This document shows, piece by piece, positions 3,400 to 12,363 of a DNA stretch of 64,000 nt. The stretch is taken from positions 161,008 through 225,007 of the forward strand of contig JAVLKG010000003.1 in the NCBI GenBank assembly GCA_032128875.1, written 5' to 3'. The stretch is from Candidatus Melainabacteria bacterium 17Bon1m (lineage in GTDB: Bacteria; Cyanobacteriota; Vampirovibrionia; Obscuribacterales; Obscuribacteraceae). Positions within the stretch are counted from its first letter, which is position 1. Each line of letters opens with the position of its first letter. The notes below the pieces were generated by a model. It was not told the origin of the DNA and did no database searches. It worked only from the letters and a program-made list of their open reading frames with translations. The translations under genes were made by a program, and so were the position numbers.

Positions 3400-5628
3400 A
3401 TGGTTGGAACGATGCGTAAAAATCAAATTTTCGTTTTATGCGCTCTGGCTGCACTCTTTGTTATGCGTGTGGCGGGGCAATTCGCTGTGGCCTTTTTTCA
3501 CGTAGGATTTTTGCCACCTATGGAAGCATGGATGTCCGGCGTAATGCCCTATCCATGGTTGTTAGGAGCGCAGATTGCCATTATTTTTTTGATGGCGAAA
3601 GTTTGCCTTGACTTGCAGCGAGGCAACGGTTTCTTCGCCCGCAGAGGCGGGCGTTTTGGCAGATTTTTACTTGAGGGCGGCGCACTTTATCTGCTGGTAA
3701 TGAGCTTGCGCTACGTAATACATATGGCACTTTATCCACATGAGCGCTGGCTCGGCGGAGCAATACCAATCTTCTTTCATGTCGTATTGGCTGGTTTTGT
3801 CCTGGTATGGGGCAGTTTTCATTTACAGGCTGTCCGGAAAAAAGTTGGTAATCGCTGGACTGCGCGAGTATTTCGTGTGTTTGCCGTGCTCGGAATACTC
3901 ATGTGGGTTGCCTATCTGTTGGCACCGTATGTAATGGCACAACAATTTCATTTGCGCCCTGCCGTCTATGCCGTAAAGATTGAGCGTGATGTTCAAGTGC
4001 CTGTAGCCGCGGGCGTGATGTTGGTCGCAGACATCTATCATCCGATGGGCTTGGAGCGAAGCCCGACCGTGCTAGTGCGCATTCCCTATACAAAAACCCC
4101 CACCAACATGCTGACTGCCAATATTATTGGGCGTCTTTGGGCCGAGCGAGGTTATACGGCGGTTGTGCAATGTACGCGAGGCAGGGGCGGCTCCGGAGGA
4201 GAATATTATCCGCTCAGCAATGACCGAGAGGACGGAATCAAGACACTGCAATGGTTGTCGAAACAGTCATGGTATGACGGACATATTGCTGGCTGGGGCG
4301 GTTCGTCGTTTGGCATCAGCCAGTGGGCTATTGCAGACCGGTCTGCGCCAGGATTTTCCGCGATGCACATTTATGAAGCGAGCACAGATATCTATAGGAT
4401 GTTCCATCCAGGTGGGGCATTTTCACTTTATAGTGCGCTTGCTTGGACTGTAACGTGCCATGGGAAAACGGATTTGCCACAGTGGCCGAAGCCGGAGAAG
4501 ATTGCCGAAGGCGCTGATGTTTTCCCGCTAATTGATGCAGATTGCAATTCCACAGGAATGGAAGTGAACTTCTTCAATGATTGGGTCAGTCACTCGGAGC
4601 GTGATCTTTACTGGCAGAACATTGATGGTACTGAACGTACAAAGTCTCTCAAAGCTCCAGTTTTGCTAATGGCAGGTTGGTGTGATGCTTTCCTGCCGAC
4701 CCAGTTGGAGGATTATCTGAAAGTCAAGGCCGAAGCAGAACCGGATATCGCGCGACGAACAAAACTCGTGATTGGTCCTTGGATTCATGGAGATGAGTTT
4801 GTTCTGCCAGACGGAACCAAGCCTTCGTTATTTCGTGCAGCAACTCTGGCATTGAGTCTTGATTGGTTTGACCATATTGTTTTGGGTAGGCCACTTCCAG
4901 CCCAGACAGGTTGCTTAAACCTGCATCAACCTCGCGACTTGTGTCGATGCAATGTGCCGCATTTGTCTTCTGCTCCTATTCAAATTTTTATTATGGGTAA
5001 GAACTTTTGGCGTTCAGAAAATGAGTGGCCGCTGGCGCGGACGCAATTTACGAGTCTGTATTTGAACCGTGACAAACTGAGCTTTTCTAAGCCTGTCGAC
5101 AGACAAAAGCCTGATAGGTTTGTTTATGATCCAAGGGTCCCTGTGCCCACCGCAGGTGGTGCCATGATTGGAAAGGTTCCAGCGATGATAAAGCAGAGGG
5201 CCGCACAGTCTCGCCCTGATGTCCTGTGTTTCACGACTGATCTTCTCAAGCATGATGTTGAGTTGACCGGTCCGGTGAAAGCGGAGCTGTTTGTTTCGAG
5301 TGACGCGCCGTGCACCGATTTTACGGCGAAATTGGTTGACATTCATCCTGATGGAACAGCATACAACGTGTGTGACGGAATTCTTCGCCGCCGTTTTTCA
5401 GGCTCTAAGGTTCAGAAAATTGAAATTGAATTGTGGCCTACAAGCATGGTGTTCTTCAAAAATCACAAAATCAGATTGGATGTGAGCAGCAGCAATTTTC
5501 CTCGCTACGACCGTAATCCAAATACTGGCAGACCAAGCGCATTTGAAACAAATCCTCGCATTGCGATTCAGAAAGTTTTTCATGACAGCGATTTCCCTTC
5601 GCGGTTAATCGTGCCGGTGATTCCATGA
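3400..5628 (+). CDS. CocE/NonD-family serine hydrolase with N-terminal multi-TM domain
   Basis: LVRIPY, QCTRGRGGSGG, nucleophile GWGGSSFG, IGPWIHG and the C-terminal SSSNFPRYDRNPNTG. Start moved to ATG 3400 (or 3412) after AGGA. Confidence 0.88.
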   Translation: MVGTMRKNQIFVLCALAALFVMRVAGQFAVAFFHVGFLPPMEAWMSGVMPYPWLLGAQIAIIFLMAKVCLDLQRGNGFFARRGGRFGRFLLEGGALYLLVMSLRYVIHMALYPHERWLGGAIPIFFHVVLAGFVLVWGSFHLQAVRKKVGNRWTARVFRVFAVLGILMWVAYLLAPYVMAQQFHLRPAVYAVKIERDVQVPVAAGVMLVADIYHPMGLERSPTVLVRIPYTKTPTNMLTANIIGRLWAERGYTAVVQCTRGRGGSGGEYYPLSNDREDGIKTLQWLSKQSWYDGHIAGWGGSSFGISQWAIADRSAPGFSAMHIYEASTDIYRMFHPGGAFSLYSALAWTVTCHGKTDLPQWPKPEKIAEGADVFPLIDADCNSTGMEVNFFNDWVSHSERDLYWQNIDGTERTKSLKAPVLLMAGWCDAFLPTQLEDYLKVKAEAEPDIARRTKLVIGPWIHGDEFVLPDGTKPSLFRAATLALSLDWFDHIVLGRPLPAQTGCLNLHQPRDLCRCNVPHLSSAPIQIFIMGKNFWRSENEWPLARTQFTSLYLNRDKLSFSKPVDRQKPDRFVYDPRVPVPTAGGAMIGKVPAMIKQRAAQSRPDVLCFTTDLLKHDVELTGPVKAELFVSSDAPCTDFTAKLVDIHPDGTAYNVCDGILRRRFSGSKVQKIEIELWPTSMVFFKNHKIRLDVSSSNFPRYDRNPNTGRPSAFETNPRIAIQKVFHDSDFPSRLIVPVIP

Positions 5629-5886
5629 ACGGAACACCTGGTGGAGATTTCGGGTGTCCGTGAAGACGAAAAGGCGAGGGGGCGACTGGCTGATTTGGGC
5701 TACTTGATCTCCTTATTAGATAAACCTTCTCTCTTATTCAATCTATGCGGGGGTTTTTGGCCGCATACTGTGCTCCGTAATCGCGCTCAGGCGCATGGGT
5801 GCCCGTTATCCCCCGGTGGGGGATAGCTGCTTAAAGGTCTGGATCAAAACGATAACCGTTTTCATTTTCGTGTTAACCTTGAAATC

Positions 5887-7125
5887 ATGGACAGCCAGGT
5901 AAAACCAGTTTTCGCCCCAAATAGCATTTATTTGGACTACGCCGCGACCACCGCAGTGGATCGGCGCGTGCTCGACGCGATGTACGGCATCATGGCTCAG
6001 GGGCACACCGGCAATGCGCATGCACGCCATCATGTTTATGGTGCGGCGGCTCACCGCAGTGTTGAAGCTGCCCGACAGCAGGTCGCGGACGCTATTGGAG
6101 CGGATTCTGCCGAAATATTCTTTACTTCGGGCGCGACCGAGGCGAACAATCTCGCCATCAAGGGAATAGCGGCGCATCTCAAGGCCGAAGGGCGCATGCA
6201 CCTGGTCACCTCGGCAGTCGAGCATGCCAGCGTTTTGGAACCTTTGCGTGAGTTGGAAGCTCAGGGATTCGAACTGACTGTTCTCGGCGTGAAACCATGC
6301 GGCATGATTGAAGCCGACATGATTGAGCGCGCAATAAGACCTGATACCGGGTTGGTTTGCGTTCAGGCAGTCAATAACGAAGTCGGCGTAATTCAGCCGA
6401 TTAAAGAGATTGCAGTGATGTTGAAGGGTAGAGGAATACTCTTCCATTGCGATGCAGCGCAAGCGCTCGGCAAGACGAATTTCAAAGTCGACAGCAGCGC
6501 ATGCGCTGCGCAAACAGGGAGCCGCATGCGGCTCTCCTACGACAATGAGAGCACTGGTCCGGATTTCGTCAGTCTCTCTTCGCATAAAGTCTACGGTCCT
6601 CAAGGCATCGGTGCGCTTTATGTGCGAGCCGAAAAGAAGCACCTGCTTACTGCGGTAAGCCGCGGTGGCGGGCAGGAAGGTGGGCTGAGATCTGGAACAT
6701 TGCCGACTGCGCTTTGTGTTGGATTCGGCAAGGCGTGTTCTTTGCTCGAAGACGACACTCGGCATGTTCGTAGTTTGCGCTGGGCGTTTCTGAATCGATT
6801 GAGTTGGCTAAAACCCACAGTCTATGGTCATTCGCATTCTGATTGGAATGTGCCCGGTATACTCTGCGTTCGTTTTACAGGCATTGAAACCGAAACCCTC
6901 ATCATGGCATTGCCTGATCTCGCCTTCGGTATTGGAGCCGCATGCAGCAGCGGCGGTGCAAAATTGTCGCACGTCGTACGCGCCACCACCGGTAGTGATG
7001 AAGCTGCCCGCGAGAGTATGCGCATATCGTTTGGTCGTTTTACTACACATCAAGAAGTCCTCAGGGCTGCCGATTTGATAATCGAGGCAGTCGAAGAAAT
7101 TAGAGAAGTTCAGGGAGTTGCATAG
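5887..7125 (+). CDS. Cysteine desulfurase (IscS/NifS class I) carrying an in-frame REP-derived insertion
   Basis: YLDYAATT, FTSGATEANN, HCDAAQ, SSHKVYGPQG (PLP Lys), RSGT and GAACSSG (catalytic Cys). Confidence 0.93.
   Translation: MDSQVKPVFAPNSIYLDYAATTAVDRRVLDAMYGIMAQGHTGNAHARHHVYGAAAHRSVEAARQQVADAIGADSAEIFFTSGATEANNLAIKGIAAHLKAEGRMHLVTSAVEHASVLEPLRELEAQGFELTVLGVKPCGMIEADMIERAIRPDTGLVCVQAVNNEVGVIQPIKEIAVMLKGRGILFHCDAAQALGKTNFKVDSSACAAQTGSRMRLSYDNESTGPDFVSLSSHKVYGPQGIGALYVRAEKKHLLTAVSRGGGQEGGLRSGTLPTALCVGFGKACSLLEDDTRHVRSLRWAFLNRLSWLKPTVYGHSHSDWNVPGILCVRFTGIETETLIMALPDLAFGIGAACSSGGAKLSHVVRATTGSDEAARESMRISFGRFTTHQEVLRAADLIIEAVEEIREVQGVA
6494..6540. repeat. REP-like palindrome family A copy inside a CDS
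   Basis: GCAGCGCATGCGCTGC followed by CAGGGAGCCGCATGCGGCTCTCCTAC. The second half nearly matches 38863-38888 and 56843-56868. Confidence 0.9.
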
Positions 7126-8130
7126 ATGAAAATCGCGTTTGTAGGTAAGGGTGGATCGGGCAAAAGTACGCTCTCATCGCTGTTTATTCGCTATTTGCAA
7201 AACGTACGCAAACGCAACGTACTGGCAATCGATGCTGACTTAAACATGAACCTCGCCGGACTTCTTGGTGTGAAAGTCGATGAAAAGACGCTCATGGCGC
7301 GCCCTGAAGTAGCTGAGTCCATTCGCAATTTTCTTAAAGGCGGCAACAAACGGGTGCCGGACGTTTCGAAGTTTTTGCCGACAACTCCTCCGGGGGCTGG
7401 CTCAAACCTTGTTTGCTCTGCGCAAGAGCCTGGTCTTCAGCCTTTCTGTGTGAATGTTTCTCAATCACCGATAGTGAATTTGTTGACTGTCGGCTCTTAT
7501 GACAAAGATGGGATAGGGCAAACTTGCTACCACTCGCATCTCTTCGTCGCTGAGAATATCCTCTCGCATACGGTCACTTCGCCCGACTTCACTATCGTCT
7601 GCGATATGGTCGCCGGCACCGACGCATTTGCTTACTCCATGCATTTGCAATTCGATGCGATTGTTTTGATCGCTGAGCCCACACCGGAATCTACTGAAGT
7701 CTGCAAGTTGTATATGGACCTGGCTCGCCAATGCGGCGTTGATGAGCTGATTCATCTGGTTGGCAATAAGATCGAAGATGCTGACGATATCGAATTCATC
7801 AGCAAGACTGTGGATAAGAAGTTGCTCGTGTCCGTGCCGGCGATGCCTAAGCTGAAGAAAGCACGCCAGAGAGGAGAAATCGTTGGCGGTGAGTTGCTCG
7901 ACCCAACGCTAACGCAGGTGATGCGCATCATTGAGAACGAAGCTCAATTGCCGTCTATCAGCCCGGCGCAAAGGCTGGAGATGCTTCACAAACTTCATTT
8001 GAAATTGAACGATAAGCAATGGGTGCAACTCGGTTATGGCGACGTTGCAGATCAAATTGATCCCGATTTTCAATACCTTCCTCGGCACGCAGGAGTTGCT
8101 GCAGTCGGTTCTATAGGTAAATTAAGATGA
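7126..8130 (+). CDS. CooC/MinD-like P-loop ATPase
   Basis: MKIAFVGKGGSGKST deviant Walker A, AIDAD, DMVAG and VGNK. CYHSH at the CooC metal-binding position. Confidence 0.85.
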   Translation: MKIAFVGKGGSGKSTLSSLFIRYLQNVRKRNVLAIDADLNMNLAGLLGVKVDEKTLMARPEVAESIRNFLKGGNKRVPDVSKFLPTTPPGAGSNLVCSAQEPGLQPFCVNVSQSPIVNLLTVGSYDKDGIGQTCYHSHLFVAENILSHTVTSPDFTIVCDMVAGTDAFAYSMHLQFDAIVLIAEPTPESTEVCKLYMDLARQCGVDELIHLVGNKIEDADDIEFISKTVDKKLLVSVPAMPKLKKARQRGEIVGGELLDPTLTQVMRIIENEAQLPSISPAQRLEMLHKLHLKLNDKQWVQLGYGDVADQIDPDFQYLPRHAGVAAVGSIGKLR

Positions 8131-9743
8131 GCACGATTGAAGCACGAGAAGACAAGGCAGCTACCAAAAGAGCGGATCAGTGTTTGGCTGATGATTTGTT
8201 GTCCGCAGATAATTGCCGGCTGGAAGCCGGCGCTCTGTCCGCTGGCGCAAGTGGCGCTGCGGCCAATTCAGCAATCGATCGGGCGCGACCAAGGGTCAGA
8301 CCGGCCATGCACCCGGCTATTGCGCGTTTTCTCCAAAATGAAAAATTGGTCTTCTCTTTAGTTGATGGACTTGGATCACCGCTCAATGTGCTCTTTCCCA
8401 GGCATATCGAAGAGACGATTGGACGCTTCGAGCAGGTGTATAAAGATCGCCAAATGCAAGGCACGATTTACTACACATCGAAGCCAAACAAATCACTCGC
8501 ATTGAAAAAACAAGCTTCGACGACTGCCGTCGGATTGGATGTTTCTTCCGAAGGTGAGCTGAAGAGTGCGCTGGCTAGCGGCTTTCACCCGGAGCGAATC
8601 GAAGCGACTGGGCCAAAAAATATCGACTACCTTAGTCTTGCTATTCAGCAAAACGTTCTTATCAATGTGGATAATTTCACCGAGCTCAAGCAGATTGCGC
8701 AGATGAGCAGGTATTCTCCGCGCGGAAAGAAGGCGCGGGTCTTGGTGCGTCTTGATGGTTTTGAGCCCGGTCGCGTGAAGTTTACCGCTCAAGACAGCGC
8801 TTTCGGCACGCCGGTTAAGGATGCTCCAGCGATCATCGATTTCCTCCTTGAGCACAAGGACTGCATCGACTTCCATGGTTTCTCATTTCACTTCAATGCC
8901 GGTGATTACATACGGCGCCCACCAGCGATTGAAGAATGTTTGCAGCTCACTTTCCGCTGCCTGGAGTTAGGTTTAAACCCCCGCGCTATCGACATTGGCG
9001 GCGGCTATCGAATTCGCTACGCTGCCGATCAAGATGAGTGGAATACATATGTCGAAGAATTGAAAGCATCGGTTCTGGGCAATCGCGAATCGTTGACCTG
9101 GAATGATTCCGGTCTCGGATATCATCGCGAAGACGGCGTGTTGAAGGGCGCTCCCAACTTTATGGAGCACTACCATAAGAATGACGGGCACGAAGATTTT
9201 GCGTCTGTCATTGATACTCCGCTACCTGCGTTTGATGGATATTCCACGGCAAGAATTGTTTCCGACAATATGTTCGAGCTGCATATCGAGCCGGGTCGAG
9301 CGTTGTTGGATCAGTGCGGTATCACACTGGCGCACGTCAATTTCGATAAGACTTCTATTCTCGGTGAGCAGTTGTCCGTGCTCGATATGAATCGCACCAA
9401 CTTGAATTCAACGCAATTGAAATTAATGACCGATCCGATCGTCATTTATCGAAACACCGATAGAAAGCCAGCTGACAGAGGTGTTATGTATGTCGGAAAT
9501 TTGTGTTTGACGCACGACATGATTCAATATCACAAGACTTTCCCTGATGCGGTTCCGCAAACTGGGGATTTAGTCGCTTTTATAAACACCGCTGCATATC
9601 AAATGGATTTTGCCGAGACGCATGTTCTTGAGCAGTCGATTGCGAAGAAGGTTGCGGTCATTGAGAGTGAAGAAGGCGTATTCCGCTGGTTCCTCGATGA
9701 GCTGTACAACCCAATGGCTATTGCCGAGGGAGTCAAACCATGA
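8127..9743 (+). CDS. Y4yA-like PLP-dependent decarboxylase (LysA/ODC fold type III)
   Basis: YYTSKPNKS, DVSSEGEL, HFNAG, DIGGGY, EPGRALL, GNLCLTHD and NTAAYQMDF. ATGA overlap with the upstream gene. Confidence 0.85.
   Translation: MSTIEAREDKAATKRADQCLADDLLSADNCRLEAGALSAGASGAAANSAIDRARPRVRPAMHPAIARFLQNEKLVFSLVDGLGSPLNVLFPRHIEETIGRFEQVYKDRQMQGTIYYTSKPNKSLALKKQASTTAVGLDVSSEGELKSALASGFHPERIEATGPKNIDYLSLAIQQNVLINVDNFTELKQIAQMSRYSPRGKKARVLVRLDGFEPGRVKFTAQDSAFGTPVKDAPAIIDFLLEHKDCIDFHGFSFHFNAGDYIRRPPAIEECLQLTFRCLELGLNPRAIDIGGGYRIRYAADQDEWNTYVEELKASVLGNRESLTWNDSGLGYHREDGVLKGAPNFMEHYHKNDGHEDFASVIDTPLPAFDGYSTARIVSDNMFELHIEPGRALLDQCGITLAHVNFDKTSILGEQLSVLDMNRTNLNSTQLKLMTDPIVIYRNTDRKPADRGVMYVGNLCLTHDMIQYHKTFPDAVPQTGDLVAFINTAAYQMDFAETHVLEQSIAKKVAVIESEEGVFRWFLDELYNPMAIAEGVKP
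8214..8235 (-). repeat. REP-like palindrome family B copy inside a CDS N-terminus
   Basis: TGCCGGCTGGAAGCCGGCGCTC is the reverse complement of 16355-16376 with one mismatch. Confidence 0.7.
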
Positions 9744-11062
9744 AGTACGATCACATAACTGAATTGATTGGCAACACGCCGTTGCTGAAAATTCCGGCGC
9801 ATGTTCATGGTTTGAAGAACATCGATCTTTACGCGAAGTTGGAGATGATGAACCCTTTTGGTTCGGTCAAAGACCGCATCGCCTGGGGCATTATCAAGGA
9901 TGACATCGACGAGATTCAAGCCAAAGGCAAAACGATTTACGAAAATTCCAGCGGCAACACTGCAAAGGCATTGCAGGTAATCGCTAATATGCACGGCGTG
10001 AAGACGCGTTTGATCACGTATCTTGCCAAGGTTGATGGCGTAAAAGACATCGTTCGAATGCTTGGCGCGGACATCGAAGAGGTGCTTGGCGGCAGCGAAT
10101 GCTTCGATCCGAACGATCCAAATGATCCGCAATTTCTCATTGCCAAAATGGTCAAAGATGACCCGGAGAAAAACTATTTCCCGTCGCAATTCACTAATCC
10201 GAAAAATCCGGATGTGCATTACAAGACGACGGGCAAAGAAATCGTCGATGATTTGAAGGAGGTCGACTTCTTCTTTGGTGGTCTAGGAACCAGCGGTTCA
10301 ACACTTGGTGCTGCTCGCCGGATTCGCGATGAAGGAAATCCGGATCTCGTCTCTGTAGGCGTTTGTGCTAGCAAGAACGATTTCATTCCCGGCATTCGCA
10401 GCCTGGATCAGATGTGGGAATCCGGACTGTTCGTCAAAGAAAACTATAGCGACTTTGTGTATGTCGATTCTGGTGAGTCGGTTGACGCGATGATGGATTT
10501 GATCCGAGGCGCCGGTTTGCTTTGCGGGCCAACGAGCGGAGCCAGCTATCTGGGCGCTTTGCGCTACCTTCGGAAAATTGACGGACAACTGACCAAGAAG
10601 AAAAATGCAGTCTTTATCGCTTGCGATCGCGTCGAGTGGTATACCGACTACATTCGTGAGCGCCGTCCGCAATTGTTCGGACTGAAGATGAAGCCCGGCT
10701 CTCTGCGCGCCTTTGAGTTTGATCCCAGCGGTAGCAAAGAAAGATTCACCATTAAAGTGGACAAGGCTCAAACTTGGATCGATGACGAGAATCCCCTTAT
10801 CATCGATGTTCGTGGCAACCTTGCTTACAAAATGACGACTATTCCTAACGCGATCAACATTCCGTGGGAATTGTTTGAAACCATGATCGATGGTGCCGAT
10901 CCGTTTCCAAAAGATCGTCCGCTGTTGCTGGTATGTCCGGTCGGAGAGAAAACTGCGCGCTATGCTGCGTACCTGCAAACTCGCGGGTACCGGTCGTTTA
11001 GCCTTGACGGGGGCATACTCGAGTGGCGTAATGCAAGCTGCCGCTTGGTGAAAGTTTCGTAG
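9740..11062 (+). CDS. Cysteine synthase-family PLP enzyme fused to a C-terminal rhodanese domain
   Basis: IGNTPL, KLEMMNPFGSVKDR, SSGNT, GLGTSGS and GPTSGA. C-terminal IIDVR, CPVGEKT and LDGGILEW. Confidence 0.9.
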   Translation: MKYDHITELIGNTPLLKIPAHVHGLKNIDLYAKLEMMNPFGSVKDRIAWGIIKDDIDEIQAKGKTIYENSSGNTAKALQVIANMHGVKTRLITYLAKVDGVKDIVRMLGADIEEVLGGSECFDPNDPNDPQFLIAKMVKDDPEKNYFPSQFTNPKNPDVHYKTTGKEIVDDLKEVDFFFGGLGTSGSTLGAARRIRDEGNPDLVSVGVCASKNDFIPGIRSLDQMWESGLFVKENYSDFVYVDSGESVDAMMDLIRGAGLLCGPTSGASYLGALRYLRKIDGQLTKKKNAVFIACDRVEWYTDYIRERRPQLFGLKMKPGSLRAFEFDPSGSKERFTIKVDKAQTWIDDENPLIIDVRGNLAYKMTTIPNAINIPWELFETMIDGADPFPKDRPLLLVCPVGEKTARYAAYLQTRGYRSFSLDGGILEWRNASCRLVKVS

Positions 11063-11295
11063 CGAACTGAAACCAAATAGGCAAGCCGCCCGCGCTCTCA
11101 GTAATGCGATAACGTGTAGTAAACTGTTGTGGTACTTACTAAGGTTTTAATCGAAAGAAACACTTGACTGGGTTGTCAGAAGAAGATCTGAGATCATTTT
11201 TCAGTCAAGAGGAAGCCTAACCTAAAGACAAGCGTTTACAGTAAGTACTTTCGAGTAGATAGGAGACGGGGCGTCTCTCAAAGGGTGTATTTAGA

Positions 11296-12363
11296 ATGAA
11301 AAAGTTAGCCGTTACTATGCAAATGTCGCTCGGGCTGCTCGCCGGGACATTGATGTCACTTGCCACGCTCACCGGATGCGGACAGGCGACTGCTCCTCAG
11401 CAGGCGGTTTCCGCAGGTTGGGGCTACATAGACACCACTGGTAACGTGGCAATCCCACCGCAATTCGAGGCTGCGATGCCTTTCTCGCAAGATAGAGCGG
11501 GAGTACTCAAGGGCGGACGCTGGGGCTTTATTGACAAGAAAGGCACGTTCGTCATCCCCGCACAGTACAACACGGTCGAGTCCTTCTCTGAGGGGCGCGC
11601 AGCAGTACAGGTCGGGGACAAATGGGGCTTTATCGATTTGAACGGACGTATGGCGGTGCAACCAAATTGGGAAAACACCCAGCCATTCTCGGACGGCTGC
11701 GCACCTGTTCGCTACAACAAGCAATGGGGCTACGTCGGTAAAGAAGGCGAGACCATCATGCCTGCCAATGCCATGAATGTAAAGCCGATGACCGAAGGTC
11801 GCGGCGCCGTTCAGATGATGTATGACGCAAAGTGGAATCCGTGGGGCTTCGTCAACGACAAAGGTGAAGTCGTTATCAAGCAACAGTACGCCAGCGTTGT
11901 TCCGTTTAAAAACGGCGTTGCCGAAGTCAAAGATGAGAAGGGTAAGACTGGTCTGCTCGACCGCGACGGCGTCATCATCTACAAGGATGAAACCGAGTTG
12001 CCGTCACTCTTTCACGATGGTTTGGCAATTACGTCTAACAGAGGCAAGCAAGGATTTGCTGATTCTAAGGGCAACATCGTTATCCCGACCGAGTACGACC
12101 AGGTTGAGAATTTCACTGAAGGCATAGCAATGGTCCGCCAGGACCTGCGTTGGGGCTACGTCAACAACAAAGGCGAAATTGTCGCGAAGATGCAGTACGA
12201 CAAAGCAACGCCCTTCAAAGAAGGTTTGGCGGCTGTGAAGCTGGCCGGCGGGCGTTGGGGCTATCTCAATAGCAAAGGTAAGTTGGCGATTGAGCCGATC
12301 TACGACGAAGCCCAGCCTTTCTCTGAAGGGTTGGCAGCCGTAAAGCAAGAGCAAGCCAAGTAA
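11296..12363 (+). CDS. WG (KWG) repeat lipoprotein
   Basis: Lipobox LTGC and repeated WG(Y/F)ID...PF(S)EG units. Confidence 0.9.
   Translation: MKKLAVTMQMSLGLLAGTLMSLATLTGCGQATAPQQAVSAGWGYIDTTGNVAIPPQFEAAMPFSQDRAGVLKGGRWGFIDKKGTFVIPAQYNTVESFSEGRAAVQVGDKWGFIDLNGRMAVQPNWENTQPFSDGCAPVRYNKQWGYVGKEGETIMPANAMNVKPMTEGRGAVQMMYDAKWNPWGFVNDKGEVVIKQQYASVVPFKNGVAEVKDEKGKTGLLDRDGVIIYKDETELPSLFHDGLAITSNRGKQGFADSKGNIVIPTEYDQVENFTEGIAMVRQDLRWGYVNNKGEIVAKMQYDKATPFKEGLAAVKLAGGRWGYLNSKGKLAIEPIYDEAQPFSEGLAAVKQEQAK

Follow-up and report, generated by a model that had tools for sequence, protein, structure and literature searches.

The closest described relatives of the system considered here are fungal enzymes of metal-chelator biosynthesis. 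Aspergillomarasmine A (AMA) synthase joins O-phosphoserine to aspartate and so produces toxin A and AMA, marasmins that chelate metals, and Fda4 of Fusarium poae, a pyridoxal phosphate (PLP) enzyme carrying a rhodanese-like domain, condenses O-phosphoserine with alanine, after which a flavin adenine dinucleotide (FAD) oxidoreductase frees L-2,3-diaminopropionate (L-Dap), as described in excerpts of PMC12751119. The same architecture, in which a cysteine-synthase-like PLP domain precedes a rhodanese-like domain, was found in the last product of a four-gene operon of Candidatus Melainabacteria bacterium 17Bon1m, located in a window of 64,000 nucleotides (the whole stretch of DNA analysed; contig JAVLKG010000003.1, positions 161,008 to 225,007), where it follows a cysteine desulfurase, a CooC-like ATPase and a LysA-like decarboxylase. 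We give an even chance to the reading in which this operon, controlled by metal starvation, probably through the zinc regulator Zur, makes a small metallophore with nitrogen and sulfur donors; its product, its sulfur step and its metal are what we infer. The first-pass annotation of this DNA had offered a sulfur-containing amino acid or amine, a metallophore or a cofactor as possible products. Of these three options the metallophore gained most, from a Fur-family box, Zur-like regulators, neighbouring COG0523 and major facilitator superfamily (MFS) genes and the fold match to AMA synthase, with secretion, product and chemistry all presumed.

Among bacterial pathways, the iron-regulated staphyloferrin B system brings together a CysK-fold O-phosphoserine enzyme (SbnA) and a fold-type III decarboxylase (SbnH) in one metallophore route, a pairing that recurs in the present module. 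However, the module has neither a nonribosomal-peptide-synthetase-independent siderophore (NIS) synthetase nor an SbnB partner. The ethylenediamine disuccinate (EDDS, aes) cluster of Amycolatopsis japonicum encodes an SbnA-like PLP enzyme, a diaminopimelate (DAP)-decarboxylase-like enzyme and an SbnB-like dehydrogenase, and it is not known to include a desulfurase, a rhodanese or a CooC-like ATPase. Persulfide relays from a desulfurase to a rhodanese are known from ThiI and EanB, and CysO-CysM of Mycobacterium is a further system for comparison. The module resembles them in having a desulfurase encoded beside a rhodanese with the catalytic loop cysteine, and its CysM-like domain might take sulfur from a donor bound to a protein. 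We know of no fusion of the carrier to a PLP enzyme and no coupling to a decarboxylase in ThiI, EanB or CysO-CysM.

The regulation of such routes by zinc is outlined in excerpts of PMC6103462, according to which clusters for metallophores (EDDS, coelibactin, pseudopaline), genes of TonB-dependent receptors and an autoregulated zur belong to Zur regulons, and Zur sometimes activates cation diffusion facilitator (CDF) exporters. In these excerpts the EDDS cluster appears as a Zur-repressed route to a zinc-binding aminopolycarboxylate, and the opine metallophore operons (cntOLMI, pseudopaline) as compact Zur-controlled biosynthesis with a TonB-dependent receptor and an exporter. Both resemble the organisation proposed here, although the opine operons use unrelated enzymes, namely a nicotianamine-synthase-like enzyme and an opine dehydrogenase.

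Structural comparison relates the fusion protein to an enzyme of chelator biosynthesis. Its AlphaFold model (mean predicted local distance difference test, pLDDT, 85.4) was matched by Foldseek at ranks 1-4 to AMA synthetase entries 8h4h and 8h4q, in apo and O-phosphoserine-bound form, with alignments of 466-475 columns that cover both domains (E 1e-26; identity 21-22%). These were the sole full-length structural matches, and they were followed by cystathionine beta-synthase (CBS), Mycobacterium tuberculosis CysM and SbnA. Residue conservation was read in 80 loci, the best 80 of 408 relatives retrieved by scanning species genomes with an alignment of the fusion protein. The residues of a CysK/CysM pocket (Lys44, the Ser70-Ser-Gly-Asn73 loop and Gln150) were each present in all 80, as was Cys121, which lies in a family-specific Ser-Glu-Cys-Phe-Asp-Pro insert motif. 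In the rhodanese domain, the six-residue loop of a sulfurtransferase was recognised as Cys399-Pro-Val-Gly-Glu-Lys-Thr, with Cys399, Gly402 and a serine or threonine at 405 again in 80 of 80, and these key residues were also kept in the 20 loci where no desulfurase was detected. The NCBIfam models for characterised relatives all scored below their cut-offs (cysKM 150 against 344 bits, cysM 145 against 394, SbnA 141 against 350). AMA synthase (PDB 8H4H/8H4Q) and Fda4 differ from this protein in being fungal and only 21-22% identical, in forming C-N bonds and in having no partner decarboxylase, desulfurase or ATPase.

The second line of evidence is the conservation of the gene combination, whose absence elsewhere the first-pass annotation had named as grounds for dropping the idea. 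A decarboxylase-based scan of species genomes yielded 21 loci, which belong to Obscuribacterales (Melainabacteria), Micavibrio and Bdellovibrionota; 17 of them hold all four genes in identical order, so that the arrangement is not due to chance; two others (L005 and L019) lack the ATPase alone, and the last two (L009 and L020) are ended by contig edges. In ten distant loci, the four core genes were the sole genes recurring in all ten. Genes accompanying the fusion protein were then counted in the 80 loci by tblastn (E <=1e-6, query coverage >=40%, <=8 kb on either side), a procedure that underestimates diverse families. The decarboxylase was found in 78, the two exceptions being short contigs, and the class-V desulfurase and the CooC-like ATPase in 60 each; further counts were those of a Fur-family gene (38), an FAD oxidase (35), a GNAT-like gene (30), COG0523 (5) and a MerC-like gene (2). 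The combination is thus conserved well beyond the window, and the desulfurase stands as a part of the module but not as a universal one. In the two close relatives without the ATPase, its gene was cleanly lost (L005 3630-3683; L019 334-341) and the other three were kept, which indicates that the ATPase is dispensable for the module.

The distribution of the module is patchy, since a whole-genome search found a relative of the decarboxylase (E <=1e-60) in 71 of 107 genomes of the host's order, but in only 1 of 301 genomes sampled across the phylum, this one being the host itself, and in 3 of 301 sampled from the alphaproteobacterial class. Within the order, the relatives split into 18 places at 67-100% identity, the host's own gene included, and a second tier at 35-42%. 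This second tier corresponds to a 12-gene operon of other Obscuribacteraceae (L024 233-13830; L027 5514-19198), which begins with a 2-oxoglutarate (2OG)-oxygenase-like gene, an unknown gene, the ATPase, the decarboxylase, the fusion protein and a SufS/CsdA-type desulfurase, and continues with an FAD oxidase, a GNAT-like gene, a Fur-family regulator, a second CooC-like ATPase and two methyltransferases. In this cassette type the ATPase, the decarboxylase and the fusion protein are retained and the IscS-type desulfurase is replaced by the SufS/CsdA type. Because two desulfurase families occupy one slot, the retained element is the desulfurase function and not one gene lineage. The FAD oxidase counted in 35 of the 80 loci belongs to this second type, and no SbnB-like or FAD oxidase partner that could release L-Dap was found in the window cassette or its flanks. 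The fungal Fda cluster, with its FAD oxidoreductase, N-acetyltransferase and MFS gene (excerpts of PMC12751119), resembles the second cassette type in its accessory genes. Some genomes with this type carry two decarboxylase-fusion pairs, 10-18 kb apart.

Control by metal availability is suggested by a candidate operator upstream of the operon, which the first-pass annotation had not noticed. This near-palindromic box ends 19 bases 5' of the first ATG, a position that fits repression, and it is identical at 21 of 23 positions to a perfect palindrome at locus L017. Of the 12 upstream regions examined, 10 carry an equivalent box (at least 17 of 23 positions shared with L017) ahead of the cassette; six of the ten belong to close relatives of the window, so that the independent lineages with a box number about five. 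In loci L014 and L015, weaker Fur-type palindromes share 13 and 14 of 23 positions. A position matrix built from the cassette boxes was scanned over the host genome against a reversed-sequence control, and the hits numbered 22 against 14 at >=15 bits, 9 against 2 at >=20 bits and 4 against 0 at >=25 bits. The window box was the top genome hit (35.0 bits), but it is itself a training site, the only one among the nine sites of >=20 bits, and the other eight lie on three loci. On contig C2, sites precede a TonB-like gene and a Fur-family regulator, a 913-residue TonB-dependent receptor and a MerC-like gene. On contig C17, one site precedes the genome's one other MerC-like gene, another occupies the divergent promoter between a VanY-like gene and a resistance-nodulation-division (RND) efflux operon (CusB-type adaptor, AcrB-type pump and outer-membrane factor), and two more were found, one of them 5' of a CDF exporter gene. 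On contig C4, a site precedes an unknown gene. In this way, a promoter box common to metal-uptake genes, as expected of a Zur regulon, was observed at the TonB, receptor and MerC-like sites. The marked loci span 814004-818852 on contig C2 and 20168-39090 on contig C17, the latter with CDF and MgtC genes nearby.

The identity of the regulator was approached through the genes linked to the box and to the module. In 38 of the 80 loci a Fur-family gene was detected at a distance of up to 8 kb, often inside the operon, as in one Clostridia locus, where the order is regulator, ATPase, decarboxylase, fusion protein and desulfurase. In Micavibrio, the regulator gene directly follows the fusion gene, and its product scores 102 bits with the Zur model against <=41 with others and matches Zur structures; all six proteobacterial-type regulators tested gave the Zur model as best (102-112 bits against <=44 for others). 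The four regulators from Obscuribacterales, Clostridia, Eubacteriales and Patescibacteria are of no type assignable by model scores. For the box-linked regulator of the host, encoded at 814569-815027 of contig C2, the best PDB matches were 3mwm, 7vo0 and 2o03, the last labelled zinc uptake regulator and the first two being what we take to be Streptomyces Zur. Neighbours of the module at various loci of other lineages include COG0523 genes, MFS/BT1 exporters, a MerC-like gene and a His-rich protein. In one Micavibrio genome, a palindrome of GTTATAnTATAAC type (<=1 mismatch) occurs at four places, a raw count no higher than that of a control pattern: before the cassette, twice before an ABC ATPase with a MacB-like permease, and once near an AI-2E transporter. 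Altogether, the box is a predicted operator of a Fur-family regulator, probably a zinc sensor (Zur). A search for ZnuA in the host genome (7.55 Mb, 93% complete) gave none, and the MerC-like proteins may therefore be inner-membrane metal importers.

It can be proposed from these elements that a Fur-family regulator represses the operon through the palindromic box and that metal scarcity would lead to its expression, the product being a small metal ligand derived from amino acids. The CysM/AMA-synthase-like domain would convert O-phospho- or O-acetyl-serine to a PLP-aminoacrylate, whose beta-carbon might be attacked either by sulfane sulfur passed from Cys353 of the desulfurase to Cys399 of the fused rhodanese, or by the amine of an amino acid, as in AMA synthase. 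The LysA-like decarboxylase would then strip one alpha-carboxylate, leaving a 2-aminoethyl end of cysteamine or ethylenediamine type. The CooC-like ATPase may act as a dispensable nucleotide-driven metal chaperone, with Cys-x-His where CooC has its nickel-binding Cys-x-Cys, and the products of genes that share the box elsewhere in the genome, namely an RND efflux system, a TonB-dependent receptor and MerC-like membrane proteins, could serve export and re-uptake. A sulfur-containing product is no more than plausible. A more specific version, less probable than not, supposes an undescribed sulfur-containing zincophore, in which the rhodanese persulfide would attack the PLP-aminoacrylate and decarboxylation would give a cysteamine-type N,S ligand; the ATPase would then represent a new family of zinc metallochaperones, and the MerC-like proteins would serve as importers in organisms without ZnuABC.

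The ATPase bears on this proposal through its relation to CooC. Its sole sequence match in the PDB was CooC (3kje), and Foldseek comparison of its structural model (mean pLDDT 85.7) returned, in order, CooC1, NifH, ATPase-type HypB and MinD, with E 1e-9 and a target TM-score of 0.72 against 3kje, so that the earlier label of CooC-like protein is upheld by both sequence and fold. The deviant Walker A motif Gly-Lys-Gly-Gly-x-Gly-Lys is invariant, as in the MinD/Mrp-type fold, and Cys134-Tyr-His136 aligns onto the Cys-Tyr-Cys of CooC; Cys134 and His136 are kept in all 60 loci that have the ATPase, and His148 in 58 of them. Thus CooC1 (PDB 3KJE) is the best match in sequence and fold, with the deviant Walker A and a metal motif at the equivalent aligned position. 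However, the present protein has Cys-x-His and not the Cys-x-Cys of the nickel chaperone, is extended by an insert of some 60 residues and by helices at the C terminus, is 20% identical, and is not accompanied by CO dehydrogenase. Genes for CO dehydrogenase/acetyl-CoA synthase were neither found in the window flanks nor recurrent in related loci, and a functional link of the ATPase to CO dehydrogenase was rejected, the neighbours being a hydrolase, a WG-repeat protein and xanthine dehydrogenase. A complex prediction of ATPase with decarboxylase scored 0.00, which says nothing about whether the two bind. The host genome has no further ATPase of this kind.

Several observations weigh against a Zur-controlled metallophore that contains sulfur. 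The characterised enzymes with the PALP-rhodanese architecture form C-N and not C-S bonds (excerpts of PMC12751119), and the product may thus draw nothing from the sulfur relay. Returning cysteine-derived sulfur to cysteine would be futile, which points to some other acceptor, and the hidden Markov model (HMM) scores cannot tell a CysM type (150 bits) from an SbnA type (141 bits), nor sulfur-type from nitrogen-type relatives. The best NCBIfam model for the host's box-linked regulator is Bacillus-type Fur, at 97 bits and below its cut-off, and this protein has valine where the aligned S. coelicolor protein has a cysteine that is presumably a zinc-site ligand. The host genome has no FolE2, no second L31 (there is one L31 gene) and no clear COG0523. 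Desulfurase and ATPase each went undetected in 20 of 80 loci, some of those without a desulfurase being truncated, and an MFS exporter adjoins the module in just 11 of 80. Moreover, the box is shared with an RND system that has a CusB-like adaptor and lies near CDF exporters, so that a resistance regulon, or one for another metal, is possible.

This last point would be central if the operon made a detoxification ligand for an excess of a thiophilic metal (Cu, Cd, Hg, Ni or Zn) within a resistance regulon in which the box serves activation. The placing of the box before the MerC-like genes and the RND system, near two CDF exporters, the activation of CDF exporters by Zur noted in excerpts of PMC6103462, and the likeness of the ATPase to CooC and HypB, both nickel chaperones, would agree with such a role. 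However, the distance of 19 bases to the start codon suits repression, Zur-like regulators, COG0523 genes and the His-rich protein indicate scarcity, and the TonB and receptor genes of the host regulon are uptake parts, so that we regard detoxification as distinctly unlikely. The same signals of metal starvation would also fit an internal metal economy, in which the enzymes make or break a thiol or amine that serves inside the cell to mobilise or buffer zinc, while the ATPase delivers metal to clients, much as COG0523 proteins work with histidine breakdown in other bacteria. The chaperone-like ATPase, the COG0523 genes adjoining several loci, the scarcity of adjoining exporter genes (11 of 80) and the occurrence of the module in small genomes of 1.6-2.5 Mb agree with this view, which we nevertheless consider unlikely: the second cassette carries tailoring enzymes of natural-product type (2OG oxygenase, FAD oxidase, GNAT-like protein and two methyltransferases), both an RND exporter and a TonB-dependent receptor belong to the host regulon, and the nearest structural relative of the fusion protein makes a secreted chelator.

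Other readings dispense with metal acquisition. The pairing of a desulfurase with a SIMIBI ATPase recalls the assembly of Fe-S and Ni-Fe-S clusters, and Cys121 and Cys399 are invariant in the 80 loci, as might be expected if the two proteins assembled a metal-sulfur centre or thiolate site on one of the PLP enzymes or on an outside client without producing any free molecule. This is very unlikely, since the invariant pair of the module consists of two PLP enzymes whose catalytic residues are complete, 20 of 80 loci are without a detected ATPase and 20 of 80 without a detected desulfurase, and the module has no conserved scaffold or client gene as a neighbour. The route given as an example in the first-pass annotation, from lanthionine or cystathionine made by a CysK-fold enzyme to thialysine made by a LysA-like one, as an antimetabolite or a substitute in peptidoglycan or lysine, fits the pairing of a beta-replacement enzyme with a LysA-related decarboxylase, the sulfur relay and the enrichment of carriers in predatory lineages (Micavibrio, Bdellovibrionota). 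It is highly improbable, given that the decarboxylase lies far under the LysA cut-off and has a large insert, that thialysine would poison its producer, and that the metal-regulator linkage and the need for a desulfurase would be left unexplained. Hardly any credence is given to ordinary housekeeping IscS, CysM and LysA genes clustered by chance: these (with CysK/M) are indeed the best named HMMs, but every score is far under its curated cut-off, outside the operon the host genome encodes four class-V enzymes, has three CysK-like genes and carries a LysA-like gene (on contig C10), and conservation across phyla extends to the fusion, to the ATPase and to the linkage with a regulator. Housekeeping synthesis of cysteine and lysine was therefore rejected on account of these scores and the other host copies.

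If the metallophore reading is correct, a function would be assigned to a bacterial relative of the fungal enzyme for the zinc chelator aspergillomarasmine A, a CooC-like ATPase family would be placed outside CO dehydrogenase biology, and MerC-like proteins would emerge as possible metal importers. Few bacterial zinc-scavenging molecules are known, comprising the opine type, EDDS, coelibactin and some borrowed siderophores. The module occurs in hundreds of species, among them Obscuribacterales, Micavibrio, Bdellovibrionota and members of Clostridia and Patescibacteria, and this wide taxonomic range suggests a common, unrecognised route of metal acquisition. No published description of the module was found in literature searches, which did not reach supplementary regulon tables; a paper on zinc in Burkholderia and a review of metallostasis contained nothing that bears on it.

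The features of the locus are collected in the table below. The four genes form a self-contained, conserved pathway module and probably one operon. The junctions reported earlier were all read in the sequence, as a TAG abutting ATG at 7123-7128 and as ATGA at 8127-8130 and 9740-9743. Likewise confirmed were the presence of three PLP enzymes of three folds (types I, III and II by their Pfam domains), the motifs GAACSS in the desulfurase and CPVGEKT in the rhodanese domain, and the lack of an isc/suf scaffold, CO dehydrogenase or nonribosomal peptide synthetase (NRPS)/NIS gene adjoining the operon, the flanking genes being assigned by Pfam and NCBIfam to an S15/CocE-NonD hydrolase, a WG-repeat protein and the xanthine dehydrogenase XdhAB.

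Table. Positions, in window coordinates, of the genes and the candidate operator of the operon
Feature	Position	Strand	Basis
Fur-family-type operator box (candidate), 23 bases, near-palindromic (11-1-11)	5846-5868	.	Palindrome comparison
IscS/NifS-like (group I) cysteine desulfurase, 412 aa	5887-7125	+	Aminotran_5, E 1e-65
CooC-like deviant-Walker-A ATPase, putative metallochaperone, 334 aa	7126-8130	+	CbiA/MinD-type P-loop, E 1e-9
Fold-type III PLP decarboxylase, LysA-like, 538 aa	8127-9743	+	Orn_Arg_deC_N, E 1e-24
CysM/AMA-synthase-like PLP beta-replacement domain plus single-domain rhodanese, 440 aa	9740-11062	+	PALP, E 7e-48; Rhodanese, E 7e-13

The enzymes preceding the fusion protein were characterised in the same manner. 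The desulfurase scored below the NCBIfam cut-offs for IscS (384 of 548 bits), DndA (354 of 480) and NifS (300 of 531), and its PLP Lys234, His113, Asp189, Arg379 and loop Cys353 are invariant in nine orthologues; its class-V fold and the presence of the PLP lysine, the catalytic loop cysteine and the arginine for the substrate agree with the IscS/NifS group I. A 19-residue insertion at about residues 204-222 (6490-6550) is absent from all eight aligned orthologues. The decarboxylase reached 123.7 bits with the LysA model TIGR01048, whose cut-off is 297.9, and alignment revealed an insert of roughly 60 residues and a family distinct from LysA. It has the PLP lysine, the glycine-rich loop (Gly291-293), the Glu-Pro-Gly-Arg motif and the active-site cysteine of fold type III, with Lys119 in 77 of 77 loci and Glu388, Cys460 and Tyr491 each in 79 of 79. 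Its Ala-rich N-terminal insertion (about residues 17-49; 8175-8275) is not found in orthologues, and conservation starts at about residue 52. Since all named equivalog models in NCBIfam score far below their curated cut-offs, the operon proteins represent distinct subfamilies.

Upstream of the box, about 130 bases (5700-5835) containing a G+C-rich hairpin are kept among genus-level relatives (L001-L009), and this region could be the terminator of the gene upstream or a leader element. An Rfam search of 5400-6000 gave no match, and a promoter and terminator scan of 5600-11400 performed no better than shuffled sequences.

Some further observations concern the carriers and their more distant variants. 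Carriers are enriched in predatory or epibiotic lineages, including many Micavibrio, Bdellovibrionota and Pseudobdellovibrionaceae and one Patescibacteria genome. Two metagenome-assembled genomes labelled 'Actinobacteria' (L016) and 'Oculatellaceae' (L021) were both placed inside the host's order by genome search. A distant variant (L043 6430-15764), with decarboxylase and fusion protein 29% and 43% identical, has as its neighbours a SpoIIE-type phosphatase and two Fe-S proteins resembling [FeFe]-hydrogenase, and does not lie next to metal-uptake genes. In the genome of L021, a second locus (L044 9904-14060) encodes an 895-residue protein with a C-terminal PALP domain, which adjoins a decarboxylase of 31% identity and a PLP enzyme of Cys/Met metabolism.

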